Assembly: GCA_964549635.1 (NCBI GenBank)
Contig: CAZJVJ010000002.1
Span: 40,567 to 104,566 of the forward strand
Length of the DNA: 64,000 bases
DNA from: an uncultured Dehalococcoidales bacterium
Lineage (GTDB): Bacteria; Chloroflexota; Dehalococcoidia; GIF9; UBA5629
Reading direction: 5' to 3'
Shown here: piece after piece, positions 31,568-56,953 of the stretch
Position numbering within the stretch: position 1 is the first letter of the stretch
Layout: each line of letters begins with the position of its first letter
Position numbers and translations under genes: made by a program
Notes under the pieces: generated by a model
Told to the model about the DNA's origin: nothing
What the model saw: only the letters and a program-made list of their open reading frames with translations
Databases searched by the model: none

Positions 31568-31772
31568 TTTGGTGATATACACACAGCATGGCTTGGCGCA
31601 CCAAGAAATTAGTCAGTGTAGCTAACAGCGATATCTGCGTTGGCGCTGCCTGCTTGTTAGTGTTTAGTTTCTGCTGGTAGGGGGCACTTGCTTTAGTTGA
31701 CATCGTGCTTCACTTAATGACTGGAGACTCAACAAAATGTCTCGTTAACACCAAGTTTTGGGAGGCTTTAGG

Positions 31773-32975: not shown

Positions 32976-32994
32976 ACGTTTGTAGGAGGTCACC

Positions 32995-34149
32995 ATGGAT
33001 TTTGGTTTCACAGAAGAGCAAGAGATGCTCCGAACCATGGCAAGAGATTTTCTAGCCAATGAATGTCCCAAGTCGAAGGTTAGAGAGCTGGACAGAGATG
33101 AAAAGGGCTACGATCCTAAGATGTGGCGCGATATGGCAGAACTGGGGTGGATGGGACTTATCTTCCCGGAGAAGTATGGCGGGACTGGAGCCAAATTTGT
33201 AGATATGGTAGTTTTGATGGAAGAAATGGGGAGGAATATTGTACCGGGGCCTTTCTTTTCAACCATTGCCCTGTGCGCCTTACCCATCCTTGAATTCGGT
33301 ACGGAGGAACAGAAATCTAAATTTCTGCCAGAGATAATAAAAGGTGAAGCTATATGGACGTTAGCTCTGATGGAACCATCAGCTAGTTATGAGGCACCAG
33401 GGATAAATTTTAGTGCTTATTTGGAAGGAGATGAGTATGTACTAGAGGGTGAGAAGATTTTTGTTCCCGATGCTCACATAGCTGATTACGTTCTTGTGGT
33501 AGCCAGGACGGGCAAAGGTGAAACACCTGAAACGGGCATCGCGTTATTCATAGTCCAGGGCAAATCTCCAGCCCTCAAAATTGAAAGAATACCTACCATG
33601 GCTGGAGACAGGCAGTTTCAGGTTATTTTTGATAGAATCAAGGTATCTAGGAATGACATTCTGGGAATAGCAGGTAAGGGATGGGAAGTAGTGGACTTTA
33701 TTTTACAGAGAGCCGCTGTATTGAAATGTGCTGAGATTTCAGGCGCGTGTCAAGCTGTTCTTGATATGACCAGCACGTATGCCAGGGAGCGGATTCAGTT
33801 CGAACGTCCGATAGGAGCGTTTCAGGCGGTACAGCAAAAATTGGCTGACATGCTTATAGATGTTGAAGCGATTCAGTTCCTTGTTTACCAGGCGGCCTGC
33901 AGTATTGATGAAGGTAAACCATCCCAATTACTGATTTCAATAGCCAAAGCTAAAGCAAGCGAGGCTTATCAGAAGATTTGTATTGATGGCATTACCTCAC
34001 ATGGAGCGATAGGTTTTACCTGGGATCACGATATCGGGCTCTACTACAGGCGAGTCAAGGCAGCCCAGTTCACTGCTGGTGATATTGATCTGCATCGGGA
34101 GAAAATAGCTATTGAGCTGGGGCTTCAGCATGACACAGAGCTTAATTAG
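32995..34149 (+). CDS. acyl-CoA dehydrogenase family, class B (both known catalytic-base positions substituted)
   Basis: ACAD fold ('MDFGFTEEQEMLR', 'PEKYGGTG'), but 'DFILQRAAV' has Gln at the IVD position and 'FTAGDIDLHRE' has Ala at the MCAD position. Confidence 0.75.
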   Translation: MDFGFTEEQEMLRTMARDFLANECPKSKVRELDRDEKGYDPKMWRDMAELGWMGLIFPEKYGGTGAKFVDMVVLMEEMGRNIVPGPFFSTIALCALPILEFGTEEQKSKFLPEIIKGEAIWTLALMEPSASYEAPGINFSAYLEGDEYVLEGEKIFVPDAHIADYVLVVARTGKGETPETGIALFIVQGKSPALKIERIPTMAGDRQFQVIFDRIKVSRNDILGIAGKGWEVVDFILQRAAVLKCAEISGACQAVLDMTSTYARERIQFERPIGAFQAVQQKLADMLIDVEAIQFLVYQAACSIDEGKPSQLLISIAKAKASEAYQKICIDGITSHGAIGFTWDHDIGLYYRRVKAAQFTAGDIDLHREKIAIELGLQHDTELN

Positions 34150-34374: not shown

Positions 34375-36165
34375 ATGAAAAAGGGTCTGTTTCTATTGTT
34401 AACTGGTCTTTTGTCGGCATCATTGTGCCTGCCAGCGTGTCAACCTAAGGCTATAGAGGAGAACATCATCAAAATCGGCATCGTCGGGCCGATGCAGTTC
34501 ATGCAAGGTGAGCATCACTGGATGGGTGCGACTATGGCTGCTGAGGAAATCAACAATGCTGGCGGAGTAAGTTTGGGCGGGAAAAAGTATCTTATAAAGC
34601 TCGTCAAAATTGATAGCAATGAGATACTTGATGTTGCTGGTGCTGCATCCGCAGTGGAGAGAGCCATAACCGTGGATAAAGTTGACTTCCTAATGGGCGG
34701 TTTCAGGACAGAAGCAGTTTACCCCATGTCCGATGTAGCCATGGACTATAAAAAGATTTTCATCAACTGTGGCGCTGCCACTGCAGCACTTCAGAAGCGA
34801 GTGGCCGATGATTACAATCGTTATAAGTACTTTTTCAAGGGCACTCCGTTCAATGAGTACTTTTTGGTGGAAAACAATTTCCGCATGTTAGGAATGGTTG
34901 CCGCTATTTTAAAAAAGGAACTGGGCATAGAAGAACCTAGGGTTGCCATAATTGCTGAAAAGCTGGAGTGGACTGAAGCAATGGTGCGATTAGCCCAGGC
35001 GAAATTACCGGGTATGGGGATGGAGGTAGTTGGTGTGTGGCGGCCATCGGATACGGCTACAGATGTCACCGCCGAGCTGACGGCCATTGCTGCCAAGGAA
35101 CCCCACATTATATTTACCGTGTTCTCTGGCCCTGTGGGCATTACCTATGCTAAACAACGCGGCGAGCTGAAGATACCTGCTTGTTCAGTTGGTATTGTTG
35201 TTGAAGGTCAGAAAAAGGAGTTCTGGACAGCTACCGGTGGCAAAGGCAACTATGAGACATTCTTAAACACGTATGCCAAGGGTGTAGCCTTAACTCACAA
35301 GACGGTACCTTTCTTCGAAGAGTTCGAGAGGCGAACTGGTCAATTCCCGACATACACCGCGGCTACTTATGATGCTGTCTGGAGTACCAAAGAAACGATT
35401 GAAGCGCTTCAGACCCTAGATGCTGATGCTCATGTTCCCTATATTGAAAAGTCATCATTTGTTAGCACTGGTGGGGTTCGAGAGTACTATCAACTGGGTG
35501 ATTCGCCATGTCCGCCAAAGTGTCCTCATGACCTAGTTTATGGTCCGGGCAAACTAACAGGTATTTGCACACAGTGGCAGGATGGAGAGCTTAAAGCTGT
35601 CTGGCCAAAGAAGGAATATGGCACGGGTGAGTGGGCATTTGAGTATCCAGGCACTGTTCCATTCAAGATACCGCCTGAGGTAATCGCTAAGTTTAAGGAC
35701 GCCAAACCTGTACCGAAACCGGAAGCACCGAGACCTAAAGTTAACGAGTATGTCAATGCTGACTATGGCTTTTCAGTGAGATATCCAATACAGTGGGTGG
35801 CGGCAGCACCTACTGCGCCGGCTGTGCTATATGCTGCTAGCCCAGCTAGGGTTCCAGCTATTCATGTTTTCGTGCTAGAAGGTGCCACTTTTGCCGATGC
35901 GGTAAAAACCGCGCTGGAGAAAGGGGCTGGTGGTTCGGCTATTAAGATTGGGGGTGAGAAGGAGACAACCCTAGCTGACGGCACTAAAGCTACGGCAGCT
36001 AAGGTGGACTGGACAGTCCTGGGATTTTCAGGCGAATCATATGCCTTGGGAGTGAAAAAGGCTGACAAGTGGATTATAGTTACTATAACCACTGTAGCCC
36101 TGGTTGAGGCTTATGACGAGGCTAAATTCTCAGAGATAGCGCGCACTCTTGAGTTTAAAAAGTAG
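34375..36165 (+). CDS. lipoprotein: type-1 periplasmic-binding-fold (Leu/Ile/Val-binding family) solute-binding protein with an extra C-terminal domain of about 139 aa
   Basis: Lipobox 'LCLPAC'. SBP core 'IKIGIVGPMQF...AAEEINNAGGV'. A Pro-rich linker 'KPVPKPEAPRPK' precedes a C-terminal domain (nt 35746-36162) homologous to the C-terminus of the 48964 lipoprotein. Confidence 0.75.
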   Translation: MKKGLFLLLTGLLSASLCLPACQPKAIEENIIKIGIVGPMQFMQGEHHWMGATMAAEEINNAGGVSLGGKKYLIKLVKIDSNEILDVAGAASAVERAITVDKVDFLMGGFRTEAVYPMSDVAMDYKKIFINCGAATAALQKRVADDYNRYKYFFKGTPFNEYFLVENNFRMLGMVAAILKKELGIEEPRVAIIAEKLEWTEAMVRLAQAKLPGMGMEVVGVWRPSDTATDVTAELTAIAAKEPHIIFTVFSGPVGITYAKQRGELKIPACSVGIVVEGQKKEFWTATGGKGNYETFLNTYAKGVALTHKTVPFFEEFERRTGQFPTYTAATYDAVWSTKETIEALQTLDADAHVPYIEKSSFVSTGGVREYYQLGDSPCPPKCPHDLVYGPGKLTGICTQWQDGELKAVWPKKEYGTGEWAFEYPGTVPFKIPPEVIAKFKDAKPVPKPEAPRPKVNEYVNADYGFSVRYPIQWVAAAPTAPAVLYAASPARVPAIHVFVLEGATFADAVKTALEKGAGGSAIKIGGEKETTLADGTKATAAKVDWTVLGFSGESYALGVKKADKWIIVTITTVALVEAYDEAKFSEIARTLEFKK

Positions 36166-36273: not shown

Positions 36274-37146
36274 ATGATTCAGGCATTCATTGTCCAATTG
36301 TTAATAGCTAGCGGGATATATGCACTGCTGGCCGTCGGTTTTTCTCTTATTTTTGGTGTAGCCCGTGTGATAAATCTAGCCCACACTGCATTCTTCATGA
36401 TAGCAGCGTATGGTATGTTTTTTTGCAGCTATCAACTTGGTCTGAATCCCATTTTGTCAGTAATTCTGTCGCTATGTGTTGCTACCTTCGCTGGCGTTGC
36501 AAGCTACAAGCTGTTTATTGATCGAGTAAGAGAACATCACGCAGCAGTATTATTGATAACTTTGACACTGGCTATGATCTTCCAGGAATTGTTATTATTG
36601 GCTTTTGGTGCCCATTTTCGTGACACCCCTGTTATCGTAGCTGGCTTCGCGGAGGTATTTGGCGTTAGAGTGGCCTATCAGCAGTTGCTATCGCTTGGTA
36701 TAGTAATTGTTGTGCTGCTGGGTGTTATAACGCTGTTAAATTGGACAAAGTTGGGCATTGCTATCAGGGCAACGGCTCAGGATACAGAGATCGCTAATCT
36801 TATGGGAATAAACGTCTCCAGGGTACTTTTGGTGACTATGGGCATAGCTTCGGCTCTGGCGGCGATTGCTGGTGTGGTAGTGGCACCATTATGGGTAACT
36901 TTTCCTTACATGTGGATGTCTCCGCTGGTGATGATAATGGCGATTGTGACTCTAGGTGGATTAGGCAGTATCAAGGGAAGTGTTATAGGGGCTTTCATAA
37001 TCGGACTGGTTGAAACACTGGTTGTTTTCTTGATTCCAGCGGGTGCGTTTCTCAGGCTGCCCTTCGCTTTGCTTATCATGGTAATAATACTTGTGGTCAG
37101 GCCCGGAGGCCTTTACGGTATAGTTTTTGAGGAGGAAAGATTGTAA
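36274..37146 (+). CDS. ABC importer permease, LivH type
   Basis: 290-aa polytopic protein of the branched-chain-amino-acid-type permease family ('GINVSRVLLVTMGIASALAAIAG'). Confidence 0.8.
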   Translation: MIQAFIVQLLIASGIYALLAVGFSLIFGVARVINLAHTAFFMIAAYGMFFCSYQLGLNPILSVILSLCVATFAGVASYKLFIDRVREHHAAVLLITLTLAMIFQELLLLAFGAHFRDTPVIVAGFAEVFGVRVAYQQLLSLGIVIVVLLGVITLLNWTKLGIAIRATAQDTEIANLMGINVSRVLLVTMGIASALAAIAGVVVAPLWVTFPYMWMSPLVMIMAIVTLGGLGSIKGSVIGAFIIGLVETLVVFLIPAGAFLRLPFALLIMVIILVVRPGGLYGIVFEEERL

Positions 37147-38184
37147 GTGTTAAGACGGTTGCTCAAAGATTTTCAAGGCGATGTACTGGCTATTCCGGGA
37201 CGGCTTCTTGCGCTTATTTTCTTTTTGTTCCTGTTCATGATGCCCCTGATTACACAAGACCCTTATATTCTCCGCATTCTTATCTTTTGCAATATTTTTG
37301 CCATTTTTGCTGTTAGCTGGGACTTTTTGTCAGGCTACACCGGCCAGATAAACTTTGGACATGCGCTGTTCTTCGGTGTTGCTGCCTATACTGCAGCCAT
37401 GCTGAATAAATATTTGGATTTTGAGCCGTGGGCAACGATATCTATAGGTGCAATTTTCGCCGTGCTGGCTGGAGTACTTATGTGCCTACCTGCATTAAGA
37501 TTGAGAGGGCCTTATCTATCGCTGGTTACCCTGGCCTTTCCTCTCATAATGCTCGGAATCATCAAAGCGTTTCCCGATATTACTGGCGGGGAGCATGGTA
37601 TAACAGGCCTTTCCCGTCTCTCTGAATCCCGTGTGGCCGACTATTATATATCAGCGCTGGTCATGACTATTTCTGTCTTGATAATGTGGAAACTCACTGA
37701 TGCTAGGAGTGGCCTGGTCAGAACAGGAATTATTCTCCACGCCATCCGTGAGGATGAGATTACGGCTCGGGCTACCGGAATTAACACCATACGTTACAAG
37801 ATGCTTGCCTTTGCTGTAGGTGGTTTTTTTGCTGGAGTGGCTGGCGGTTTATATGCCCACTTTATGAGAATTGCAGGCCCATCAACTCTGGACCTTCTCC
37901 TATCTTTCCAGGCAGTGATATGGACTATCTTTGGGGGCATAGTCAGCATATATGGACCAATTGTTGGCGTCTATGTGCTATATCCACTTACAGAAGTACT
38001 GAGGATTATTCCTGAGCTGCGGTTTTTAATCCTTGGTGCTATAGTTATAGTGATTATTCTTTTTATGCCTGAGGGGATTGCAGTATGGATTAGAGATAAA
38101 ATTGAGAGGCGTTGTCCACGCTGCAAATTAGCTAACGCCTCGTTACGCCGTGAATGCAGAGCCTGTGGTGCTTCTTTGTACTAG
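37147..38184 (+). CDS. ABC importer permease, LivM type, with a C-terminal 4-Cys zinc-ribbon tail
   Basis: 345 aa with LivM-like 'GYTGQINFGHALFFGVAAY'. The last 23 aa are 'CPRCKLANASLRRECRACGASLY'. GTG start directly after the livH-type stop. Confidence 0.8.
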   Translation: MLRRLLKDFQGDVLAIPGRLLALIFFLFLFMMPLITQDPYILRILIFCNIFAIFAVSWDFLSGYTGQINFGHALFFGVAAYTAAMLNKYLDFEPWATISIGAIFAVLAGVLMCLPALRLRGPYLSLVTLAFPLIMLGIIKAFPDITGGEHGITGLSRLSESRVADYYISALVMTISVLIMWKLTDARSGLVRTGIILHAIREDEITARATGINTIRYKMLAFAVGGFFAGVAGGLYAHFMRIAGPSTLDLLLSFQAVIWTIFGGIVSIYGPIVGVYVLYPLTEVLRIIPELRFLILGAIVIVIILFMPEGIAVWIRDKIERRCPRCKLANASLRRECRACGASLY

Positions 38185-38198
38185 GCGCAGTTAAAGTC

Positions 38199-38948
38199 TT
38201 ATAAACCTAGATAGGTCTTTCTGATAGTTTCGTCTTTAAGTAGCTCCTGGGCTGTTCCTTGAGCTATTATGTGCCCTCTGGACATAACGTAGTTTCTGCT
38301 TGACAAGTTGAAGGCGAAGCTGACGTCTTGTTCAGCCAGAAGTATAGTGACGCCCAGTTCGTGATAAATTTCCTCTATGCGTTTAAACAGGTCGTCTTTC
38401 AGTTTTGGTGCCAGTCCACTTGATGGTTCATCGACCAGCATAAACTTCGGTTTACGCATCAGTGCTCTGCCGATAGCCAGCATTTGCCGTTCACCGCCGG
38501 ATAAAGTGCCAGATATCTGATTTTCTCTTTCCTTTAATCTGGGAAACAATTCATAGACCTTGTTGAGACTGTCGTTGACTTCCTTTTTATCCTTGACTAG
38601 GAAGGCTCCGGCCAGCAAATTGTCCTTTACCGTCATTTCGGCGAATGGTCTACCTCTTTCTGGGCAGAGAAGCAGTCCTCTTTTGGCTATTTCGAAAGCT
38701 GAAAGTTTTTCAATCCTCTCTCCTTCGAACTCAATAGAACCCTCAAAAGTTATGTCTGCTTGCCTTGTCCCTTTTAATATTTCCTTCTCCCAGTTTATCA
38801 GTCCAGCTATAGCGCGAAGGAGAGTGCTTTTACCGGCGCCATTAGGACCGACAAGCCCCACCAGCTCTCCCCTCTCAACCTTGAGGTCAGCTTCATCCAG
38901 CACCATTGCCGTATCATAACAAACGGTGACATTCTTAACTTCTAGCAA
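38199..38948 (-). CDS. ABC ATPase, LivF type
   Basis: 249 aa with Walker A 'GPNGAGKST', signature 'LSGGERQ' and Walker B 'MLVDEPS'. Confidence 0.85.
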   Translation of the reverse strand: MLEVKNVTVCYDTAMVLDEADLKVERGELVGLVGPNGAGKSTLLRAIAGLINWEKEILKGTRQADITFEGSIEFEGERIEKLSAFEIAKRGLLLCPERGRPFAEMTVKDNLLAGAFLVKDKKEVNDSLNKVYELFPRLKERENQISGTLSGGERQMLAIGRALMRKPKFMLVDEPSSGLAPKLKDDLFKRIEEIYHELGVTILLAEQDVSFAFNLSSRNYVMSRGHIIAQGTAQELLKDETIRKTYLGL

Positions 38949-39711
38949 TGAGCACCTCCCTACCGGTATAGGCTTCGATTACCGCCGGGTTTTTGGCTAT
39001 TTCTTCAGGTGTGCCCTGGGCGATAACCTCACCGAAGGCAAGCACAATAACTCTATCAACAATCTTCATGAGTTCGGTTAGCTTATGTTCGATAATCAGC
39101 ATAGCTGGCCCTTCGCTGTGCAGTCTGCCGAATCTTCCACCCTTGTGTAACCTTTTCATTGATTTGGCTACGAGATCCGTTTCTGCTGGATTTAGCCCGC
39201 CGAAAGGCTCATCAAGTATAAGTAACTCCGGCTCGGTGGCAATGGCTCTGGCTACCTCCAGTCGCTTTAGGTCCCCATGGGAGAGGATTGAAGCTGGTTC
39301 AAGGGCCAAGTCAGCGATTCCGACAAACTCTAAAGCATCCCTCGCCTTCATCTCAGCTCTCTTGACCCACTCACCTCGTTTGGTTATCCTGGGACAGAGA
39401 CAGCCTACCATGACATTTGCAATGATAGGTAAATGGCGGAACGGCTTAACTACCTGAAAAGTCCCTACTACACCCTTCTGGACGATTTCCCAGGGGCGTC
39501 GTCTAGTTATGTCTTCGCCTTTGAACCTGACCTTTCCAGAATCGGGCTTTAATATACCGAGTATGCACCGTATGAGAGTGGTCTTACCAGAACCGTTTGG
39601 CCCAATGAGACCAACGATTTCATCTCGTTCTATTTTGAAGCTTACATTGTTGACAGCAACTAGCCCACCAAAGCGTTTTGTAAGGTTTTCTACTTCGAAG
39701 AATGGTACCAT
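38935..39711 (-). CDS. ABC ATPase, LivG type
   Basis: 258 aa with 'GPNGSGKTT', 'LSHGDLKRLEVARA' and 'LILDEP'. The start lies 1 nt after the upstream acyl-CoA ligase stop. Confidence 0.85.
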   Translation of the reverse strand: MVPFFEVENLTKRFGGLVAVNNVSFKIERDEIVGLIGPNGSGKTTLIRCILGILKPDSGKVRFKGEDITRRRPWEIVQKGVVGTFQVVKPFRHLPIIANVMVGCLCPRITKRGEWVKRAEMKARDALEFVGIADLALEPASILSHGDLKRLEVARAIATEPELLILDEPFGGLNPAETDLVAKSMKRLHKGGRFGRLHSEGPAMLIIEHKLTELMKIVDRVIVLAFGEVIAQGTPEEIAKNPAVIEAYTGREVLIARS

Positions 39712-39712
39712 T

Positions 39713-41428
39713 CTACATTTCCTCCTCCCTCAGCTCTCGGCGGGATACTTTGCCCACATCTGTCTTAGGCACTTCGCCTCTAAATTCAACGATTTTCGGA
39801 CATTTGTAGTGTGCCAGCCGTTCCCCACAATATTTTATAATCTCTTCCTCTGAGATTTTGCCCCGTGCTTCTGTTTCTAGCACTACGATAGCTTTGACTT
39901 TTTCGCCAACATCGGGGTCAGGCACGCCGATTACTCCAGCCTCTTTAACTTTTGGATGGGAAACCAGAACCTCCTCTACCTCGCGCGCAAACACAGCCAG
40001 CCCTTTGTATTTGATCATGTCTCGTTTTCTATCGTAGAAATAGAAATAGCCGTCCTCGTCCATTTTTGCTAAGTCACCGGTCCTAAGCCACGTTTCGCCA
40101 TCTATATCGACAAACATTTTCTTGGTCTCTTCAGGCTTATTCCAGTACCCTTTGCATACTTGTGGCCCCTTGACTACAAGTTCTCCTATTTCGCCCACAG
40201 GTAGGAAGTTAGTGCCTTCGGGATCGATAATGCCTGCTACGGTATTGGGAAGAGGAATGCCGAATGAGCCAACTTTCGGTTTACCATAGGGGCTGACCAT
40301 ACCTACTGAGCTGGTCTCAGTCATACCCCAGCCTTCGTGTATTTTAGTACCGGTGCGTTTTTCCCAGCCTTTAGCGGTGTCTTCAAGCAGTGCATCAGCA
40401 CCGGAGATGAGAACTTTGATGCGTTTCCAATTCACCCTGTCGGTGCGGTGATAGTCTCTGAGAAATTCATATAAGGACGGCACACTGTAGAAGATGGTTG
40501 CCTTGTAGCTCTCCATTGAGTTTAAGATGTCGTCAAGGTCGGGTGTAGTGAATATCACGAGTGTATAGCCTTGGGAAAGGCCACCCATCATAACCACGGC
40601 TTGACCATAGATATGATAGAAGGGAAGATAAGCTAGTATTGTTTCTTTGCCCTCCTGGACAACATCACCCCAGAACTTTTCTCCTAGATATCGAGCAGCA
40701 GTGAGATTGTAATGAGTTATCATTGCCCCCTTGGGCAGTCCTGTGGTGCCACCTGTGTAGGGCAAGGTTACTAAATCCTCTCTGATGTTGAATTTGATTT
40801 TGGGTGGATTGGGTGGATATTTTCTGAGCAAGTCCTGGAACCTGTAAAATCCCTCCCGTTCATATATCTCTACCGGTGGTGCTGCCATCTTTTGATATAC
40901 CGCCCGGAGTACGCTGCTACCGAGGAACTTCTTTGTTCCGGGTAAATACTCAGTAATGCTGGTTAGTATGACCCTATCTAGCTTGACACCTGTCCTTTCT
41001 ACATTATCATAGAGGATGTCCTGGCAAACAATAGTCTTAGCCTCACTGTCTTCAAGCTGGTACTTAATTTCAGGACTGACATAAAGTGGGCTGATGGCAG
41101 TTATGGTGGCACCAGCTTTTAAGGCTCCGAAATAAGCAATGATAAACTGCGGGGAGTTCAGTAGCAAAAGGGCAACTCTGTCACCCTTTTTTATACCTAA
41201 ATCATGTAGCGCGGTAGCAAAGCGATCAACCTGCTCCCTTAGCTCCTTGTAACTCATTTTTTTACCATAGAATATTATGGCGGTTTTATTTTTCCATTTA
41301 TCCGTGCCTTCATCGAAAGTTTGCACGACGGATTTCTCCGGAATTTCCACATCTGGTGGCACATCTTTAAGATACCATTTTAGCCAGGGTCTGGACTCAT
41401 AAATAGCTTTATTTGGATCGGTTGGCAC
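39713..41428 (-). CDS. AMP-forming (long/medium-chain) fatty-acid--CoA ligase
   Basis: 571 aa with the AMP-binding motif 'LPYTGGTTGLPKGAMITH', plus 'GWGMTE' and 'TGDLAKMDEDGYFYFYDRKRDMIKYKG'. Confidence 0.85.
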   Translation of the reverse strand: MPTDPNKAIYESRPWLKWYLKDVPPDVEIPEKSVVQTFDEGTDKWKNKTAIIFYGKKMSYKELREQVDRFATALHDLGIKKGDRVALLLLNSPQFIIAYFGALKAGATITAISPLYVSPEIKYQLEDSEAKTIVCQDILYDNVERTGVKLDRVILTSITEYLPGTKKFLGSSVLRAVYQKMAAPPVEIYEREGFYRFQDLLRKYPPNPPKIKFNIREDLVTLPYTGGTTGLPKGAMITHYNLTAARYLGEKFWGDVVQEGKETILAYLPFYHIYGQAVVMMGGLSQGYTLVIFTTPDLDDILNSMESYKATIFYSVPSLYEFLRDYHRTDRVNWKRIKVLISGADALLEDTAKGWEKRTGTKIHEGWGMTETSSVGMVSPYGKPKVGSFGIPLPNTVAGIIDPEGTNFLPVGEIGELVVKGPQVCKGYWNKPEETKKMFVDIDGETWLRTGDLAKMDEDGYFYFYDRKRDMIKYKGLAVFAREVEEVLVSHPKVKEAGVIGVPDPDVGEKVKAIVVLETEARGKISEEEIIKYCGERLAHYKCPKIVEFRGEVPKTDVGKVSRRELREEEM

Positions 41429-41488
41429 CTTTTGCCTCCTTCATTTTGCTACAAGCACTATAACATAACTTGTCGGGCTTTGACAAAC

Positions 41489-41526
41489 ACTCACAAGTTT
41501 GCAAATAAGTGGTTTCACATGTGAGT
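41489..41526. promoter_or_regulatory. inverted repeat ACTCACA-N24-TGTGAGT (includes the palindrome CACATGTG) in the divergent control region
   Basis: Arms at 41489-41495 and 41520-41526. Flanked by -10-like boxes TATAAT (+, 41541-41546) and TATAGT (-, 41462-41457). Confidence 0.3.
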
Positions 41527-41592
41527 ATTGACAGATGTAGTATAATTATCTAAATCATCTTTGCGGAACGTTTTATAGAGTTAAGGAGCTTT

Positions 41593-42366
41593 TTGGGGGC
41601 ACGAGATCAGATCAAATTAAGAGTTGAAGACCTCGGTTTATATTTCGGAAAGCTCCGTGCTTTGGACGGGGTTAGTTTGGAGGTCAGGGGGACAGAAATA
41701 CTGGCTGTTATAGGGCCGAATGGTGCTGGAAAGAGCTGCCTCCTCAACTGCATAAATGGCTTCTATCGTCCCCAGCAGGGAAATATCTATTTCGAGGGCA
41801 GGAATATTACCCGGATGCCTCCTCACAAGATTGCCGAGATGGGCCTGGCTCGGACCTTCCAGAACATCGAGCTCTATACTGGACTTACTGTTCTAGACAA
41901 TATTATGGCAGCCAGGCATGTTAAAATGAAGCAAGGAGCACTGGCTTGTGCCTTCTATTTTGGTCCGGCCTATCGAGAGGAGATAGAGCACCGAAAGGTG
42001 GTTGAGGACATAATAGACTTTCTGGAACTGGAACCGATTAGGAAGAAGGTGGTGGGTCTTCTTCCCTATGGAATGCGGAAGCGAGTGGAATTAGCTAGAG
42101 CACTGGCTTTAGAACCGAAGCTCCTTTTACTTGATGAGCCTATGGCGGGTATGAACATAGATGAGAAGGAGGACATGGCTCGTTTCATTATTGATACTAT
42201 AGAACTACGTCGTATACCTATTGTCCTTATTGAACATGATATGGAAGTGGTGATGGATATTGCTGATAGGGTAGTTGTCCTTGATTTTGGACATAAAATC
42301 GCTGAGGGTACACCTGATGAGATAAAGGTCAACCCTGCAGTCATTAAGGCATATCTGGGTGAATAG
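41593..42366 (+). CDS. ABC ATPase, LivG type (second system)
   Basis: 257 aa with 'GPNGAGKSC', 'LPYGMRKRVELARA' and 'LLLDEP'. TTG start after AAGGAG. Confidence 0.85.
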   Translation: MGARDQIKLRVEDLGLYFGKLRALDGVSLEVRGTEILAVIGPNGAGKSCLLNCINGFYRPQQGNIYFEGRNITRMPPHKIAEMGLARTFQNIELYTGLTVLDNIMAARHVKMKQGALACAFYFGPAYREEIEHRKVVEDIIDFLELEPIRKKVVGLLPYGMRKRVELARALALEPKLLLLDEPMAGMNIDEKEDMARFIIDTIELRRIPIVLIEHDMEVVMDIADRVVVLDFGHKIAEGTPDEIKVNPAVIKAYLGE

Positions 42367-42376
42367 GAGGCCGTAG

Positions 42377-44344
42377 ATGGAGGAAATTCCCTTTTTTGAC
42401 ACTGCGGCAAAATACCTGAAATACAATTACGAAAAATGGGGCGATAAAAAAGTAGCGCTGCGGGTTAAGGACCGGGGTATCTGGCAGTCATACACCTGGA
42501 AGGACTACTACGAAAAGGTTAAGTATTTCTCGCTTGGCCTGATCAGCCTCGGCCTGGAGAGAGGGGATAAGGTTGCCATACTGGGTGAAAACAAACCCGA
42601 ATGGTTCATCGCTGAGGTCGGCGCTGGTGCTGCGGGGGCTACTGTGACCGGCATATTTGTGGACTGTCTACCGATTGAAGTCAAGTACTATGTTGAGAAT
42701 TCAGAGTCTAAGTTTGTCATAGCTCATGACCAGGAGCAGGTAGACAAGTTCTTACTCCCATATAAAGATAGGGAAGGTAATGAGCACCCACCTCTTAAGG
42801 ACGAGCTACCGCTATTAAAGAAAATTATTTTCTGGGATCCGAAGGGGATATTGGGTTATGAAGGGACTCCTATAGGTGCGTACGCCGACCCGATTTTAAT
42901 GGGCTTCGACCAGGTTATGGAGCTGGGCAAGGAGTACGAGAAATCCCACCCTGGCTTGTTTGAGGAAAACATCGAGAAGACGAGCGGTGACGACATAGGC
43001 CTTTTCATGTATACATCTGGCACCACTGGTCTACCCAAGGCTGCTATGCTCCGAAACAGGGTGTCACAGCTGACCAACAGGGCATGGTGTTCTGTGGACA
43101 AGTGGAGTCCTAATGAGCAATATGTCTCCTTCTTACCGCCAGCCTGGGTTACAGAGCAAGCCCTTGGCGTAGGTGCCAATTTGCTAACGGGCATGGAGGT
43201 GAACTTTCCTGAAGAGCCGGAGACGGTACTGGAAAACATAAGGGAGATCGGCCCTAGTATTCTCTTCTGGGGGCCGGCTAATTGGGAGAGTATAAGTCGG
43301 ATAATTCAGGCGAAGATCATTGACACTAGTCCGTTAAGAAGATTTCTATACCATCTTTTCTTGCCGGTTGGCTATAAAGTAGGTGACCTGAGGGTGGCTG
43401 AGAAAAAAGTTAACTGGTTCTGGCGAACGCTATATGCAATTGCAGAATTAATCATGTTCCGGCAGCTCAAGGACAAGGTCGGTCTGTCAAAGGTGAGGGT
43501 TGCCTACAGCGCTGGGTCGGCGATAAGCCCTGAAATCTTCCGCTATTTCCAGGCCCTTGGTGTGAAGCTCAAGCAACTATACGGCAGCACGGAAATGGGG
43601 CTGGTTACCATACATCCCGATAATGATATCAGGCCGGAAACTTGCGGGCCACTTATGCCTGGATATGAATGCCGGTTGTCTGAAGACGGCGAGATCTTGG
43701 TGCGGAGTGAGATGCTCTTTGCTGGTTATTACAAGAAGCCTGAAGCTACAAAGGAAAAGTATATAGGAGACTGGTATCGCAGCGGTGATTTTGGCTATAT
43801 CGAAGAACATGGGCATCTTATCTGCATTGACAGAATGGACCATTTGAGGGAATTGAAGGGCGGTCAAAAGTTTTCGCCACAATTTGCTGAAATCAGACTG
43901 AGGTTCAGTCCTTTTATCAAGGGTGCTTTGATCGTAGGAGGCGAGGACAAGGATTTTGTCACTGCCATAATAAATATCGACCTCGATAATGTAGGTAGGT
44001 GGGCAGAGCAAAGACGTATAGCATACACCACCTTCACTGATTTGTCCCAGAAGCCTGAAGTCATTGACCTGATAAAGAAAGAAATACAGAGGGTTAACAG
44101 GGTACTTCCAGAATGGACAAGGATAAAAAGGTTTGTCAATTTGCACAAGGAATTTGATGCTGATGATGCAGAGCTGACGAGGACCAGAAAACTACGGCGA
44201 GATTTTATCGAAGAGCGATATGGATATTTGATAGATGCGCTCTACGGTGATAAAGATGAACTTAAGGTTGAAGCGCCGATTACATACCGAGATGGTCGAA
44301 CAGGGACGATAACAACGACGGTGAAGGTTTGCACGGTTGCGTAG
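42377..44344 (+). CDS. AMP-forming long-chain acyl-CoA synthetase embedded in the ABC importer operon
   Basis: 655 aa with 'MYTSGTTGLPKAAML', 'YGSTEMG' and 'SGDFGYIEEHGHLICIDRMDHLRELKGGQKF'. Lies between the livG-type and livH-type genes. Confidence 0.85.
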   Translation: MEEIPFFDTAAKYLKYNYEKWGDKKVALRVKDRGIWQSYTWKDYYEKVKYFSLGLISLGLERGDKVAILGENKPEWFIAEVGAGAAGATVTGIFVDCLPIEVKYYVENSESKFVIAHDQEQVDKFLLPYKDREGNEHPPLKDELPLLKKIIFWDPKGILGYEGTPIGAYADPILMGFDQVMELGKEYEKSHPGLFEENIEKTSGDDIGLFMYTSGTTGLPKAAMLRNRVSQLTNRAWCSVDKWSPNEQYVSFLPPAWVTEQALGVGANLLTGMEVNFPEEPETVLENIREIGPSILFWGPANWESISRIIQAKIIDTSPLRRFLYHLFLPVGYKVGDLRVAEKKVNWFWRTLYAIAELIMFRQLKDKVGLSKVRVAYSAGSAISPEIFRYFQALGVKLKQLYGSTEMGLVTIHPDNDIRPETCGPLMPGYECRLSEDGEILVRSEMLFAGYYKKPEATKEKYIGDWYRSGDFGYIEEHGHLICIDRMDHLRELKGGQKFSPQFAEIRLRFSPFIKGALIVGGEDKDFVTAIINIDLDNVGRWAEQRRIAYTTFTDLSQKPEVIDLIKKEIQRVNRVLPEWTRIKRFVNLHKEFDADDAELTRTRKLRRDFIEERYGYLIDALYGDKDELKVEAPITYRDGRTGTITTTVKVCTVA

Positions 44345-44370: not shown

Positions 44371-45255
44371 GTGCAGTTTTTCCTGGATCTGAGTGTTAAC
44401 GGGTTGATTATAGGGGGGCTTTACGCCCTGGTGGCACTGGCTATAGTTCTTGTGTGCAAAGCCACGGAAGTGGTAAGCCTAGCCCACGGTCAATTGCTTG
44501 CCTTCGGTGCTCTGTTTTTCTATGTTGGCTATGTATTGCTTGGGCTACCTCTCTGGACAAGCTGGGTCCTGGCTATAGCAATGGGTGCCTTGCTGGGTTT
44601 CACGGTGGAGCGTGTCTGCCTGCGGCCATTGATCGGGCAGCCCTTATTTTCAGGCTTCCTCATGACCTTTGCTGTATTTATGGTGCTTGACGGCATTTTT
44701 GCGCTCATCTTGAAGGGTGAAGCCTGGGGATTTCCTGATTTTTTGCCCAAGGGTGAAATCAACATTGTAGGTGTCAATGTACATCTAGGCGGCCTATACA
44801 GTCTGGGTATCAGTATCTTAATCTTCCTGTTGACGACGGCTTTCTTCCGTTACACCAAAATTGGCTTGGGAATGAGGGCTACAGCAGAGTCGCACCAGCT
44901 AGCCCAGAGCGTGGGGATAAATGTCAGGACGATATTCTCGCTTGTCTGGATTCTGTCAGCGGTGGTGGCTGTGGTGGCAGGTGTTATGCTGGCAAGGTAC
45001 TACGACATCCGTTTTATGTTGACGCTTGTTGCCTTCAAAGGTCTGGTGGTGGCTATGGTCGGGGGCCTTGACTCGTTGCTTGGCGCTATTGTCGGCGGTC
45101 TGTTTCTGGGCTGGGTAGAGCATGTGGCTGCCGGCTATCTTGACCCGATTGTCGGTGGCGGCGTCATGGAGGTGGCTGGATACATTATACTCCTGTTCGT
45201 TTTGCTGGTGAGGCCATACGGGTTCTTTGGCTTAGAAAGAATAGAGAGGATATGA
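44371..45255 (+). CDS. ABC importer permease, LivH type (second system)
   Basis: 294-aa polytopic protein with 'GINVRTIFSLVWILSAVVAVVAG'. GTG start after GGAGG. Confidence 0.8.
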   Translation: MQFFLDLSVNGLIIGGLYALVALAIVLVCKATEVVSLAHGQLLAFGALFFYVGYVLLGLPLWTSWVLAIAMGALLGFTVERVCLRPLIGQPLFSGFLMTFAVFMVLDGIFALILKGEAWGFPDFLPKGEINIVGVNVHLGGLYSLGISILIFLLTTAFFRYTKIGLGMRATAESHQLAQSVGINVRTIFSLVWILSAVVAVVAGVMLARYYDIRFMLTLVAFKGLVVAMVGGLDSLLGAIVGGLFLGWVEHVAAGYLDPIVGGGVMEVAGYIILLFVLLVRPYGFFGLERIERI

Positions 45256-45256: not shown

Positions 45257-46303
45257 ATGCTTCCCTGCGGTACTTTCAACCAGGATTATGGCAGAGATAC
45301 AGCGGTTATACGGACAAGGTTGCAGTGGATCATAACCATACTTGCCATTGTGGCGCTGTTAACTGTACCGCTTTATGGTGGCCATTACTTAATTGGTCTA
45401 ATAAACAAGATGTCAATTACCATAATTGCTGTGCTGGGATTGCAGTTGACGATGGGTTATTGTGGGCTCATCTCATTTGGTCAGGTGGCGTTTGTAGCTA
45501 TAGGTGCATTCACCTCGGCTATTCTCTGTGACACCTATAACTGGCCATTCTGGCTGGCGTTACCGGTTTGTGGCATTTTTGCAGGGGTAATTGGGGTACT
45601 CGGTGGCACTCCGGCCCTAAGGATTAAAGGATTCTATCTTGCTATCGCCACTTTAGCGATCCACTACCTCGTATCATGGCTGATAATACACCTGAAAATC
45701 ACCGGCGGTGTTATTGGTTTACATGTGCCACCCCCCACGGCGTTTGGTTTTACCTTCGATGATGATGGGAAGATGTATTATATAATCGTACCCATGATGC
45801 TGCTGATGACCTATTTTGCCAAGAACCTGGCTAGGTCAAGGATAGGCAGAGCCTTTGTGGCCATAAGAGACAATGACCTAGCAGCCTCGGTAATGGGGGT
45901 GAGCCTGTTTAGGTACAAAATGCTTGCCTTTTTCATCGGCTGTTTCTACGCAGGTATTGCTGGCTCACTGTTTGCTCACTGGATGCAGTTTGTTCACGTA
46001 GAACAGTTCCCGCTATCTGACGCCGTTTTTTACATAGGTATGCTCATCGTCGGTGGTCTGGGAACCATAGTCGGCGTTTTCTTCGGTACCATTTTTATAA
46101 GCCTGCTTATTGAGGCAGTCACGTTTGCTTCGCCGACTTTAACCGCATTGTTCCCGGCGCTTGGTATTGCCCCAGCAGCGGCGCTTGGGGTTACTGCCTT
46201 CGGGGTCATAATTGTTCTTTTCTTAATCTATGAGCCCAGAGGGCTAGCTCACCGGTGGAGTATTTTTAAGGCTTCTTACAGGCTCTTCCCGTTTGCGTAT
46301 TAA
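45257..46303 (+). CDS. ABC importer permease, LivM type (second system)
   Basis: 348 aa with 'GYCGLISFGQVAFVAIGAF'. No zinc-ribbon tail. Confidence 0.8.
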   Translation: MLPCGTFNQDYGRDTAVIRTRLQWIITILAIVALLTVPLYGGHYLIGLINKMSITIIAVLGLQLTMGYCGLISFGQVAFVAIGAFTSAILCDTYNWPFWLALPVCGIFAGVIGVLGGTPALRIKGFYLAIATLAIHYLVSWLIIHLKITGGVIGLHVPPPTAFGFTFDDDGKMYYIIVPMMLLMTYFAKNLARSRIGRAFVAIRDNDLAASVMGVSLFRYKMLAFFIGCFYAGIAGSLFAHWMQFVHVEQFPLSDAVFYIGMLIVGGLGTIVGVFFGTIFISLLIEAVTFASPTLTALFPALGIAPAAALGVTAFGVIIVLFLIYEPRGLAHRWSIFKASYRLFPFAY

Positions 46304-46330: not shown

Positions 46331-47593
46331 TTGGAAATGGGAAAACAAAAGTCTCTGGTGGGCGTTATTTTTCTCGCAACAATGTTAGCTTTGGCATTAG
46401 CCTGCGCTCCTGGAGCTGCGCCAGCGCCGAAGGAGAAAGTGGTCACCTATCTGGATTTGGCAGATTATACTGGACCGATAGCCGGACTTAATGTACCTGT
46501 GGGTATAGCTACTGAAGACATGTACAACGAGATAAATGCCAAGGGTGGTGTTATGGGGGTTAAGATAAATTACCTGAGCGTGGACACCCGCTATGATTTA
46601 GCACGAGGAGTATCAGCCTACAAAAGGTATAGAACTGAGCCGAAGCTGATGGCGGTGGTTGCCATAAGCACAGCGCTGAGCAAAGCTATAACTCCCATGA
46701 CCGAAAAAGACGAGGTGGTCCAGTTCGTGACAGGCGATGGTGAGCCACAGGCCCGCCTGGGCTGGGTATTCATCATAGGTCCGGCTTATCAGAACGGCTT
46801 CGGCGCTAGTGTTGATTTCCTGCTGGAGGACTGGAAAAGGAAGGGTAATCCAGGTATGCCTACCATCGGTTACATAAACTGGGACAACCCCTACGGTCGG
46901 GAGTTGCTGCGTGGTGGTAAGGAATATGTTGAGAAACTGGGAGTGAAATTGCTGCCGCCGGAGTTTTTCCCAACTGGTGCTCCAGACCACACTGTGTGGT
47001 TGAAGAGACTGGCTGAAGGCAATCCTGATTACATACTTATTGCTGGTGTTGACCCGACACCGAGCAATATATTGCGGGATGCATACAAGCTGGGGCTTAC
47101 TAAAAAGATACAGTTTATTGACGCATCTTACTGGGGGCCCACCGAGGCAGTTGGCATCAAGCTGCACCCTGAGGCTACAGAAGGTTGCTGGGTTAATTCT
47201 TATTATCTTCGTGGTGATGAAGCCTGGGCACATCCACTGGCTGCCTCCATGGTGACTAAGTATCATGGCAAGAGTGTGGCGGAATTTCGTAAAACGACGG
47301 CCACAATATATGTTTCCGGGTTGACTCGACCGCTCGTTTTTGCCAAAGCCTTGGAGATAGCCCTTGGCAAAGCTGGTGGCTACGAAAAACTGGATGGCAA
47401 AGCTATGAAAGCCGGTTTTGAAGCTCTCACTGGTATGGACTTGTCACAAGGTCTGACAGGGCCAATTGCTTACAGTCCTACCAGCCGCCAGAATGTCGAG
47501 GAGGTAAAGTTTTATCAGGTTAAGGGCGGTACAGAAATACCTATAAGTGGCTGGAGAAAGGTGCCCGACTGCGTGTCGCTTCATTATAAATAA
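46331..47593 (+). CDS. lipoprotein solute-binding protein, type-1 PBP fold (paralogue 1)
   Basis: Lipobox 'LALAC' followed by an Ala/Pro tether. 'VDTRYDLARGVSAYKRYR'. About 70% identical by eye to the next gene. The start could be ATG 46337. Confidence 0.75.
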   Translation: MEMGKQKSLVGVIFLATMLALALACAPGAAPAPKEKVVTYLDLADYTGPIAGLNVPVGIATEDMYNEINAKGGVMGVKINYLSVDTRYDLARGVSAYKRYRTEPKLMAVVAISTALSKAITPMTEKDEVVQFVTGDGEPQARLGWVFIIGPAYQNGFGASVDFLLEDWKRKGNPGMPTIGYINWDNPYGRELLRGGKEYVEKLGVKLLPPEFFPTGAPDHTVWLKRLAEGNPDYILIAGVDPTPSNILRDAYKLGLTKKIQFIDASYWGPTEAVGIKLHPEATEGCWVNSYYLRGDEAWAHPLAASMVTKYHGKSVAEFRKTTATIYVSGLTRPLVFAKALEIALGKAGGYEKLDGKAMKAGFEALTGMDLSQGLTGPIAYSPTSRQNVEEVKFYQVKGGTEIPISGWRKVPDCVSLHYK

Positions 47594-47676: not shown

Positions 47677-48945
47677 ATGAGTAAAAAGATTTATTTACTA
47701 ATCGGTGCTATTCTAATCTGTGCTGCATTAGTGCTGCCGGCGGTATCAGCCTGTGCCCCAGCTGCAGCGCCACCACCTAAGGAGAAAGTGGTCACTTACC
47801 TTAGTCTGGCGGACTATACCGGACCTATTGCCGGCCTTAATGTTCCAGCCGACATGGGCTGCGAGGATATGTTTAAGGAGATAAACGCCGCAGGTGGAAT
47901 TGACGGCATAAAGGTCAATTTCATAGGTGTTGATACCAGATATGACGTAGCTCGTGGTGTTTCCGCGTATAAGAGGTACCGGACGGAGCCCAAGCTGCTG
48001 GTGGTGAATGCCATCAGCACGGCGTTTGGCAAGGCAATTTATCCGCTGACAATGGCTGACAAGGTGGTACAGCTGGCTCCGGGCGACGGGGAAGCCCAGG
48101 CAAAGATAGGTTGGGTGTTCCCCTGGGGGGTCTGCTACCAGAACGCCTTCGGTGCTACCATAGACTTCATACTGAACGACTGGAAGGCAAAGGGCAAAAC
48201 TGGCGTGCCGACCATAGGCTATATGAGCTGGGACAACGCTTACGGCAGAGAGCCATTGCGTGGCGGCAAAGAATATGCTGAGAAAATGGGTGTTAAGTTG
48301 CTGCCTCCAGAATTCTTCCCTACTGGCGCACCAGACCATACGGTGTGGCTGAAGAGGCTAGCTGAGGGTGGTGCGCAGTATATCATCATCGGTGGCGTTG
48401 ACCCGACGCCAAGCAACATACTGCGTGATGCCCACAAACTGGGACTGACCAAGACGATTCAGTTTGTTGACTCTACCTTCTGGGGGCCGACTGAAGCTCT
48501 CGGTGTTAAGCTGCATCCGGAAGCTACTGAGGGCTGCTGGGTAAATAGCTACTATCTGCGTGGTGACGAAGTCTGGACCCATCCTTTGGCTTCAAGGATG
48601 ATACCGAAGTATCGAGGAAAGAGCGTGGACGAGTTTCGTAAGACCACGCCGGCTAACTATGTAACAGGCATGATATGGGCGCTGGTATATCAGGAAGGCG
48701 CAAAGAGAGCCATCAAGGCTGTTGGCTATGACAAGCTGGACGGTTCAGCCATGAAAGCAGCCTACGAGTCGCTCACCGGCCTGGATCTGGGCCAGGGGCT
48801 GGTGGGGCCTTGCACCTACAGTCCCACCAACCGGCAGGGGAGCGACGTGACAAGGTTCTACCAGATACGGAATGGTAAAGAGGTCCCTATCAGTGGCTGG
48901 GTGAAGGTGCCTGATTGCGTTGCCCTGCATGATTGGAGCAAATAG
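47677..48945 (+). CDS. lipoprotein solute-binding protein, type-1 PBP fold (paralogue 2)
   Basis: Lipobox 'AVSAC'. Shares long identical blocks with paralogue 1 ('GVKLLPPEFFPTGAPDHTVWLKRLAEG', 'KLHPEATEGCWVNSYYLRGDE'). Confidence 0.75.
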   Translation: MSKKIYLLIGAILICAALVLPAVSACAPAAAPPPKEKVVTYLSLADYTGPIAGLNVPADMGCEDMFKEINAAGGIDGIKVNFIGVDTRYDVARGVSAYKRYRTEPKLLVVNAISTAFGKAIYPLTMADKVVQLAPGDGEAQAKIGWVFPWGVCYQNAFGATIDFILNDWKAKGKTGVPTIGYMSWDNAYGREPLRGGKEYAEKMGVKLLPPEFFPTGAPDHTVWLKRLAEGGAQYIIIGGVDPTPSNILRDAHKLGLTKTIQFVDSTFWGPTEALGVKLHPEATEGCWVNSYYLRGDEVWTHPLASRMIPKYRGKSVDEFRKTTPANYVTGMIWALVYQEGAKRAIKAVGYDKLDGSAMKAAYESLTGLDLGQGLVGPCTYSPTNRQGSDVTRFYQIRNGKEVPISGWVKVPDCVALHDWSK

Positions 48946-50374: not shown

Positions 50375-51169
50375 ATGTTAAGGTTAAACAATATTGAAGT
50401 TATCTATCTGAATGTGATATTGGTGCTGAAGGGGGTATCTCTGGAAGTGCCAGATGGGCAGATTGTGACGCTGCTCGGCGGCAACGGTGCTGGTAAGACG
50501 ACAACACTCAAGGCTATTTCCGGGCTGCTTTATACAGAAGAGGGCGAGGTGACCGACGGCAGCATCGAGTGGGACGGACACCGAATAGATAGAATGAATC
50601 CCGAAGATGTGGTCAAGTTAGGGATTGTCCAGGTTTTGGAGGGGCGGCCGATGTTCGAACACCTATCTGTGGAGGAGGAATTAAAAGTAGGTGCATATAC
50701 GCGGCGTGATGCTGCGGGGGTAAAAAGGGACCTTGATATGGTATATAACTACTTCCCAAAGCTGAAGGATCTGCGTCATGCCACGACAGGCTATCTTTCC
50801 GGTGGTGAAAGGCAGATGGTGGTGATGGGGCGGGGGCTGATGGCACGTCCAAAGCTGATGCTTCTGGACGAGCCATCTCTTGGGCTCAGTCCTATACTTG
50901 TAAAAGAGATCTTTGACATAGTGAGGAAAATAAACGCGGAGGAAAAGACATCTTTTCTATTAGTGGAACAAAATGCCAGGGCTGCACTGGAACTAGCTAA
51001 CTATGGGTATGTAATGGAGAATGGCCGGGTGGTTATGGATGGGCCAGCTGAGAAGCTTAGAGATAATGAGGACATAAAGGAATTTTATCTGGGGTTGAGT
51101 AAGCTGGGCCAGAGGAGGAGTTACCGAGAGGTCAAGCACTATAAGCGACGTAAGCGCTGGCTGGCTTAA
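50375..51169 (+). CDS. ABC ATPase, LivF type (second system) with a basic C-terminal tail
   Basis: 264 aa with 'GGNGAGKTT', 'LSGGERQ' and 'LLDEPS'. A 23-aa tail 'SKLGQRRSYREVKHYKRRKRWLA' follows the usual 'EFYLGL' end. Confidence 0.85.
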   Translation: MLRLNNIEVIYLNVILVLKGVSLEVPDGQIVTLLGGNGAGKTTTLKAISGLLYTEEGEVTDGSIEWDGHRIDRMNPEDVVKLGIVQVLEGRPMFEHLSVEEELKVGAYTRRDAAGVKRDLDMVYNYFPKLKDLRHATTGYLSGGERQMVVMGRGLMARPKLMLLDEPSLGLSPILVKEIFDIVRKINAEEKTSFLLVEQNARAALELANYGYVMENGRVVMDGPAEKLRDNEDIKEFYLGLSKLGQRRSYREVKHYKRRKRWLA

Positions 51170-56942: not shown

Positions 56943-56953
56943 AGGTGACCTCC

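Follow-up and report, generated by a model that had tools for sequence, protein, structure and literature searches.

Two Liv-type ABC importers of a Dehalococcoidales bacterium are each encoded with their own acyl-CoA synthetase, in two independent, conserved cassettes

A 64,000-nucleotide stretch of the genome of an uncultured Dehalococcoidales bacterium (GenBank assembly GCA_964549635.1, contig CAZJVJ010000002.1, positions 40,567 to 104,566), referred to here in its whole length as the window, contains two Liv-type ATP-binding cassette (ABC) importers, and each of them is linked to a gene for an AMP-forming acyl-coenzyme A (CoA) synthetase (ACS). The two systems together extend from position 34375 to position 51169. 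A preliminary description of this DNA covered 38199 to 44344, a span that holds the ATPase and ligase genes only. Genes were called from a listing of open reading frames and from Pfam and NCBIfam scans of the window, and the two systems, with their substrate-binding proteins (SBPs), were found to consist of the following features.

34375-36165, plus strand: SBP1, a lipoprotein substrate-binding protein of 596 amino acids (Peripla_BP_6, PF13458, E value 7e-24)
36274-37146, plus strand: LivH1 permease (PF02653, E value 3e-36)
37147-38184, plus strand: LivM1 permease (PF02653, E value 1e-41)
38199-38948, minus strand: LivF1 ATPase (ABC_tran; best NCBIfam matches LivF and UrtE, under cut-off)
38935-39711, minus strand: LivG1 ATPase (ABC_tran, PF00005, and BCA_ABC_TP_C, PF12399)
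39713-41428, minus strand: ACS1, a FadD/PimA-like AMP-forming acyl-CoA synthetase of 571 amino acids (PF00501, E value 8e-91, and PF13193)
41429-41592, no strand: putative divergent control region of 164 bp (sequence, inverted repeats)
41593-42366, plus strand: LivG2 ATPase (ABC_tran, PF00005, and BCA_ABC_TP_C, PF12399)
42377-44344, plus strand: ACS2, a FAA1/FadD11-like acyl-CoA synthetase of 655 amino acids, between livG2 and livH2 (PF00501 and PF23562)
44371-45255, plus strand: LivH2 permease (PF02653)
45257-46303, plus strand: LivM2 permease (PF02653)
46331-47593, plus strand: SBP2a, a lipoprotein binding protein (PF13458, E value 2e-38)
47677-48945, plus strand: SBP2b, a lipoprotein binding protein (PF13458)
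48964-50040, plus strand: lipoprotein of 358 amino acids (translation, alignment, locus maps)
50375-51169, plus strand: LivF2 ATPase with a C-terminal extension (ABC_tran; best NCBIfam matches LivF and UrtE)
51095-51166, plus strand: basic tail of LivF2, LSKLGQRRSYREVKHYKRRKRWLA, the signature of the ACS2-type cassette

Both systems have the composition of HAAT/Liv-type transporters (TC 3.A.1.4), with two PF02653 permeases (E values for LivH1, LivM1, LivH2, and LivM2, 1e-25 to 1e-41), LivG-type and LivF-type ATPases, and a Peripla_BP_6 SBP. The NCBIfam scores of the LivG and LivF proteins of both systems were all under the equivalog cut-offs. LivG2 terminates in AYLGE, and LivF1, which starts with a TTG codon and has the N terminus MLEVKNV, terminates in TYLGL without a tail. 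The two binding proteins of system 2, SBP2a and SBP2b, are 68% identical.

The gene content and gene spacing given in the preliminary description were confirmed from the sequence and the Pfam and NCBIfam scans. The ACS1 stop and the livG1 start are separated by a gap of 1 nt (ATGTAGaATG), with the Shine-Dalgarno sequence GGGAGGAGG upstream, and livG1 and livF1 share 14 nt; in system 2, gaps of 10 nt and 26 nt separate ACS2 from livG2 and livH2, respectively. Translational coupling of the ligase and ATPase genes is plausible from these junctions. The reported split of system 1 over convergent strands, with the SBP and permease genes on the plus strand and the ligase and ATPase genes on the minus strand, was confirmed as well. 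The stops of the convergent genes livM1 and livF1 are 14 nt apart (38182-38201), which leaves no room for two terminators, so that the 3' ends of the two system-1 transcripts probably overlap. The divergent region that separates ACS1 from livG2 contains two near-palindromes at 41467-41529 (AACTTGTCGGGCTTTG/CAAACACTCACAAGTT and AACACTCACAAGT/ACATGTGAGTATT), including AACTTGT...ACAAGTT at 41467-41499, which could serve as a shared operator. No regulator gene was seen within the cluster.

The domains and motifs of both ligases place them among the ANL AMP-forming acyl-CoA synthetases. The ANL motifs A3, A5, A7, A8, and A10 are intact in ACS1 (YTGGTTGLPK, WGMTE, TGD, DRKRDMI, and PKTDVGKVSR) as well as in ACS2 (YTSGTTGLPK, YGSTE, SGD, DRMDHLR, and TRTRKLRR). 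The two proteins resemble FadD of Escherichia coli, FadD11 of mycobacteria, and PimA of Rhodopseudomonas palustris but fall outside those equivalog families, with NCBIfam scores for ACS1 of 401 against FadD (cut-off, 884) and 313 against PimA (cut-off, 705.6) and a score for ACS2 of 244 bits against FadD11 (cut-off, 950).

Matching parts of systems 1 and 2 are only 24 to 40% identical, and the two systems are therefore independent lineages, with ligases from different ANL subfamilies. For system 2, the comparison covered the genomic loci of the 80 best relatives of ACS2, with ACS identities down to 36%. The order livG-ACS-livH was found in 70 of these loci and ACS-livG in 4, and contig ends interrupted the remaining 6, so that the ACS gene abutted livG in all 74 loci in which neighbours were visible. 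These loci span Chloroflexota, Thermodesulfobacteriota, Methylomirabilota, Rokubacteria, Acidobacteriota, Gemmatimonadota, Actinomycetota, Omnitrophota, and Burkholderiales, and LivG2 is 50 to 64% identical to cassette LivG proteins from other phyla. A separate search found the cassette in Thermus as well, with the same order of livG, ACS, livH, livM, SBP, and livF. System 2 is the local copy of a cassette that occurs in at least 10 phyla and consists of livG, an ACS of about 630 to 660 amino acids with an AMP-binding_C_3 domain, livH, livM, SBP, and livF.

System 1 is the local copy of a cassette with a narrower distribution, in Dehalococcoidia and Thermodesulfobacteriota, which is composed of a FadD-like ACS of about 570 amino acids, livG, and livF. 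The unit ACS1-livG-livF was present in 36/36 orthologous loci, in which the ACS1 homologue was at least 58% identical (Dehalococcoidia and a few Thermodesulfobacteriota). Convergent SBP-livH-livM genes accompany it in most of these loci, Dehalococcoidia included, and four loci are fully co-directional. No Liv neighbour was found at any of 44 loci of ACS1 homologues that were at most 48% identical (archaea, Anaerolineae, and others). Thus, the proposal that the locus holds two independent linkages of a ligase with a transporter was borne out, in 74/74 and 36/36 loci; these linkages are ancient, and the arrangement is widespread rather than special to this locus.

The assembly that contains the window (1.72 Mb in 47 contigs, 96% complete) is from a freshwater member of the Chloroflexota. 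All seven LivH/LivM pairs of this genome adjoin an ACS gene, one in system 1 and six in ACS2-type cassettes. The genome has 16 ANL ligase genes, nine of them without transporter linkage, and 22 acyl-CoA dehydrogenase (ACAD) genes. An ACS2-type gene was detected in 28 of 151 sampled Chloroflexota, nearly always in single copy, and the highest number outside the genome studied here was three. The ACS paralogues of the five further ACS2-type cassettes of the genome are 45 to 71% identical to ACS2, and in one cassette livG is inverted and lies downstream of livF, away from the ACS gene. These five cassettes are located as follows.

C4:9284-16354, ACS2-type cassette
C4:59474-66358, ACS2-type cassette
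C10:30658-37735, ACS2-type cassette
C32:3702-10416, ACS2-type cassette
C31:772-5908, ACS2-type cassette

A further feature of the ACS2-type cassette is the basic tail of its LivF. LivF2 extends 24 residues past the usual YLG end and terminates in ...VKHYKRRKRWLA. The tail follows the pattern K-[HAT]-Y-[KRSH]-R-[RK]-K-R-[WF], with the core KHYKRRKRW or KHY[KR]RRKRW, and is near-invariant across phyla in about 58 complete LivF proteins of related loci, even though LivF overall is only about 57% identical; the Thermus form is KAYKRRKRFM. All five complete cassettes of the window's genome carry it. When the tail motif was back-translated, 28 matches were obtained in nine genomes, four of the larger of which contain 45 to 106 PF02653 permease genes, and 27 of the matches had an ACS2-type gene at most 7 kb away; a reversed control gave none. 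Among the 151 Chloroflexota, 27 had both the tail and an ACS2-type gene, at a distance of 4 to 7 kb on the same strand, 122 had neither, and one each had the tail alone or the gene alone, both of these at contig ends. The codons of the tail vary synonymously, which indicates that selection acts on the peptide. Because LivF1 lacks it, the tail is a marker of the ACS2-type cassette specifically, not of every ligase-linked importer. The LivF tail as a signature of this cassette is new here.

The reading that we favour, with a probability of roughly 0.55, is that the window encodes two separate Liv-type importers, each co-expressed with its own AMP-forming ACS, which import organic acids, trap them as CoA esters, and feed them into PimCD-like beta-oxidation. 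Outside the cell, the lipoprotein SBPs would bind the substrate, an organic acid that is probably medium-chain, branched, dicarboxylic, or alicyclic, and LivHM and LivGF would bring it inward at the expense of ATP. The ligase, made from the same mRNA and at matched levels, would at once convert the acid to its CoA thioester, which could neither leak back nor acidify the cytoplasm, and the ester would then pass to the PimCD-like beta-oxidation enzymes encoded in the flanks. Import followed by trapping is suggested by what was observed of gene content, conservation, and genomic context, namely the conserved cassettes, the linkage of seven of seven Liv systems to a ligase, the intact ANL motifs, and the acyl-CoA genes in the flanks, together with precedents in R. 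palustris and Ralstonia. The Liv-type SBPs RPA3723 and RPA3724 of R. palustris, encoded beside pimA, bind fatty and dicarboxylic acids (PMC3223731). The Ralstonia Liv-type ABC transporter ABZR87_RS12600-20 and the adjacent ligase RS12625 were both specifically required on pimelate in random-barcode transposon sequencing (RB-TnSeq) (PMC12543098). Acyl-CoA-metabolism genes were also found within 8 kb of 28 of 45 distant loci.

Genes for the metabolism of acyl-CoA lie on both sides of the two systems and include the following.

31758-34149, plus strand: ACAD pair, PimC-large-like and PimD-small-like, just upstream of SBP1 (Pfam ACAD; TIGR03204 and TIGR03203 among the best matches, under cut-off)
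51349-55005, minus strand: three ACADs (PimC-like, PimC-like, and PimD-like), downstream of LivF2 (Pfam and NCBIfam)
55271-59864, minus strand: biotin carboxylase, mmdA-like carboxyltransferase, enoyl-CoA hydratase, and BKACE, an operon ahead of the three PimCD-like ACADs

The biotin carboxylase of the last operon has 448 amino acids and no biotin carboxyl carrier protein domain, and the best match of the BKACE was the 3-keto-5-aminohexanoate cleavage enzyme, under cut-off. The flanks also encode MaoC hydratases, short-chain dehydrogenases/reductases, and an SCP2-type thiolase with a DUF35 partner. In view of this dense ACAD context, catabolism is the likely sink of the CoA esters in the window's genome.

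Several observations weigh against the organic-acid reading. One concerns the fate of the CoA ester. Several genomes of the same class, 1.4 to 1.9 Mb in size, have one ACS2-type cassette and either one ACAD gene or none (none in four of them), so that catabolism cannot be the universal role of the cassette and beta-oxidation cannot be the sink in these genomes. The retention of the ACS in such genomes indicates that the ligase is tied to transport and not to one downstream pathway, which argues that CoA activation is intrinsic to the job of the importer, as trapping or as a supply for lipid synthesis. The others concern the transported substrate. The closest solved SBP to SBP2a and SBP2b, both in sequence and in fold, is 3LKB of Thermus thermophilus, which was crystallized with valine bound, and 13 of 13 Thermaceae orthologues of 3LKB (66 to 94% identical) are encoded in a livG-ACS-livH-livM-SBP-livF cassette with the LivF tail; no other solved binding protein was traced to a cassette of this type. 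A 2026 study of Calditenuis takes multi-copy Liv systems, some of them beside acsL, for importers of branched-chain amino acids (PMC12979851). An AlphaFold2 model of SBP2b (predicted local distance difference test score, 93) matched LivJ-like proteins in all of its top folds, and its neighbours, the nearest being 3LKB (template modelling score, 0.78 to 0.86; identity, 18 to 29%), 4RU0, and 4N03, mix binders of valine, fatty acids, and aromatic acids with no separation. The claim in the preliminary description that the substrates are carboxylic acids rather than amino acids is thus not secure, given the cassettes of the Thermus orthologues of valine-bound 3LKB and the interpretation made for Calditenuis.

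The physical or stoichiometric coupling of ligase and transporter suggested in the preliminary description is possible, although we regard it as doubtful: the ligase may dock on the LivG/LivF dimer, perhaps via the LivF tail, and receive its substrate directly from the permease, such that transport and thioesterification are mechanically or allosterically linked in a vectorial-acylation machine. The near-invariance of the tail in an otherwise divergent LivF, with synonymous codon variation, and its restriction to ACS2-type cassettes (27 of the 28 motif matches and 27 Chloroflexota genomes with both) are consistent with such docking, as is charge: the tail is strongly basic and ACS2 is acidic, with a net charge of about -9 (N-domain, -11). 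Across the 42 loci that were complete, ACS and LivG diverged in step: their pairwise distances gave a rho of 0.93, the highest of any pair in the module (LivG-LivF, 0.87), and the partial correlation was 0.68 when the four other parts were controlled for (partial Mantel p, 0.001). The adjacent pair LivH-LivM gave no partial correlation, so adjacency alone is not the source of the ACS-LivG signal. The contiguity of ACS and livG in all visible loci and the persistence of the ACS where beta-oxidation is absent also fit docking. However, none of the 80 ACS2-related loci contains a fusion of ligase and ATPase, system 1 has a ligase without a tail, and livG is inverted away from the ACS gene in one cassette of the window's genome. 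In addition, the co-divergence of ACS and LivG could stem from a shared recombination history of neighbouring genes or from non-independence among the loci, and the tail could equally serve as a membrane anchor or a regulatory element. Long open frames considered as candidate fusions were rejected; they are high-GC read-through in other frames.

We put forward only tentatively, then, that the ACS2-type cassette encodes a transport-activation complex across many phyla, in which the tail recruits or regulates the acidic 650-amino-acid ligase at the cytoplasmic face. The substrate may be thioesterified on leaving the permease, or acyl-CoA may exert feedback on the ATPase. If this were true, the system would be the first case of an enzyme serving as an obligatory subunit of a binding-protein-dependent ABC importer, and transporters listed in databases as 'branched-chain amino acid' transporters that carry the tail and the ligase would need re-annotation.

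It is somewhat less probable that the two systems are amino acid importers. Liv systems would then carry branched-chain or other amino acids, in keeping with the name of their family, while the ligase acts on a different molecule, e.g., related branched-chain fatty acids, and the linkage would reflect shared regulation, not a shared substrate. The valine in 3LKB, the presence of its Thermus orthologues in the same cassette, and the occurrence of the cassette in genomes without ACADs favour this alternative, and so does the Calditenuis archaeon, which assimilates branched-chain amino acids, has 8 to 12 copies of each liv gene, and has two acsL genes beside such transporters (PMC12979851). However, the catabolism of branched-chain amino acids gives acyl-CoA directly and requires no AMP-forming ligase, and the strict 1:1 retention of a ligase with intact catalytic motifs argues for a shared substrate. 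Cassette SBPs of different phyla are only 21 to 29% identical, so that specificity probably differs from cassette to cassette and the Thermus ligand need not transfer to the window. Residues Ser79, Thr102, Tyr202, and Glu226 of LivK align with T114, G137, V240, and S266 of SBP2a, and a conserved acidic residue at the Glu226 position of LivJ and LivK is missing, a point that counts weakly against amino acids. That alignment shows no Tyr/Glu pair in 3LKB either, even though valine is bound there, and the residue mapping therefore has no discriminating power.

A role of the organic-acid importers mainly in salvage, with imported fatty acids activated to acyl-CoA or acyl-ACP for membrane lipids, appears improbable for the window's genome. 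Enzymes of the FAA1/COG1022 type include acyl-ACP synthetases for lipid recycling, which counts for salvage, as do the single-copy ACS2-type cassettes in the small genomes of the same class with one ACAD gene or none. Against it stand the 22 ACADs and seven cassettes of the genome, the ACAD, hydratase, and thiolase genes on both sides of the two systems, and the number of importers, seven of which would not be needed for salvage alone. Chance or purely historical adjacency of ligase and transporter, without a functional link, might be entertained on the grounds that ANL ligase genes are numerous in this genome, but it is effectively refuted by cross-phylum conservation down to 36% ACS identity, the two independent cassettes, and the linkage of all seven Liv systems.

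Systems of this kind are already known, through clusters of the pim, cou, hba, and bzd type and through RB-TnSeq evidence, and both cassettes of the window are uncharacterised members. Among known systems, R. palustris pimFABCDE with its Liv-type ABC transporter (SBPs RPA3723 to RPA3725) is comparable in that a Liv importer lies beside a ligase (PimA) and the heteromeric PimC/PimD ACADs. Pim models were among the best NCBIfam matches of the window's ACADs and ACS1, but the scores were far under the equivalog cut-offs. The R. palustris ligase is encoded within the catabolic operon, and no LivF tail is reported there, whereas in the window the ligase is inside the transporter operon and LivF2 has the tail. 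In Ralstonia sp. UNC404CL21Col, an importer (ABZR87_RS12600-12620) and a neighbouring ligase (RS12625) are paired in a comparable way, a likeness drawn from adjacency and the pimelate phenotype; the Ralstonia ligase is adjacent to the operon, whereas that of the window is embedded. E. coli LivJ/K-LivHMGF (HAAT, TC 3.A.1.4) shares the two PF02653 permeases, the LivG and LivF ATPases, and the Peripla_BP_6 SBP, but has no ligase gene and no LivF tail and transports Leu, Ile, and Val, and the window's proteins scored well under the equivalog cut-offs for it. Literature searches yielded no functional study of an embedded-ligase cassette, and the sole direct mention of acsL beside Liv transporters was in the Calditenuis study.

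Other candidates for precedents were examined and set aside. PDB 4N03, annotated as a 'fatty acid ABC transporter SBP', could not be linked to an ACS cassette: in Thermomonospora and Streptomyces, its orthologues belong to livF-G-H-M-SBP operons that lack both a ligase gene and the basic tail. The LivF proteins of such operons (Thermomonospora, Streptomyces, and Nonomuraea) are extended too, but by an acidic stretch of another kind, with ...L[TS]RW and then 1 to 4 further residues at its end. The 'ABC transporter' found by RB-TnSeq for C7/C8 fatty acids is an Mla system, and the strongly phenotypic ligase ABZR87_RS02020 has no transporter adjacent to it.

The proposed logic is that of vectorial acylation, or group translocation (TC class 4.C), in which conversion to the CoA thioester keeps a membrane-permeant acid from leaving again once it has been taken up. 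Examples are FadL-FadD in E. coli, FATP/ACSL in eukaryotes, the mce1 operon with fadD5 in mycobacteria, and the peroxisomal ABCD transporters with acyl-CoA synthetases, and in the mce1 and ABCD systems an ABC-type transporter is paired genetically or physically with a ligase. The cassettes of the window would follow the same principle with different transporter families, the importer here being a binding-protein-dependent type I ABC transporter.

Few kinds of importer are as numerous in environmental bacteria as the Liv-type ABC systems. The cassettes define a recognisable subclass of them that always comes with its own CoA ligase, and the 9-residue motif of the LivF tail provides a simple marker for annotation. 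Because Thermus carries an ACS2-type cassette, it offers a tractable model for asking whether an ABC importer works together with an enzyme; a literature search found no paper on the Thermus 3LKB protein. Seven importer-ligase modules and 22 ACADs in 1.7 Mb point to a lifestyle of scavenging organic acids from lake water.

The 358-amino-acid lipoprotein encoded between SBP2b and LivF2 has a lipobox (LPMAAC), then a poly-Pro tether of eight consecutive prolines, a conserved beta-sandwich N-domain, and a PsbP/DcrB-like C-domain. Over its last ~140 amino acids, it shares 50% identity with the C-terminal extension of SBP1 (35746-36162), a PsbP-like module of about 140 amino acids. Homologues of the N-domain occur alone, as a lipoprotein of about 165 amino acids, 3' of the SBP gene in cassettes of Chloroflexota and Thermodesulfobacteriota. 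In a structural model the N-domain was moderately confident and the C-domain poor, and fold matches were weak (DcrB/PsbP-like and Ig-like). Elsewhere in the genome, orphan SBP2b-like genes are located at C10:39545, C13:23089, and C4:129558, the last of which is followed by a homologue of the 358-amino-acid lipoprotein.

Farther from the importers, convergent and overlapping genes for the alpha (CoA_binding and Succ_CoA_lig) and beta (ATP-grasp_5) subunits of an ADP-forming acyl-CoA synthetase lie at 22922-24988, just upstream of beta-oxidation genes. With these genes present, the locus may yield ATP from acyl-CoA as well as consume ATP when acids are activated. A block at 1674-4704 for cobamide salvage and remodelling, unrelated to the importers, encodes a CobA/BtuR adenosyltransferase, a CobT phosphoribosyltransferase, CobS, and CobU.

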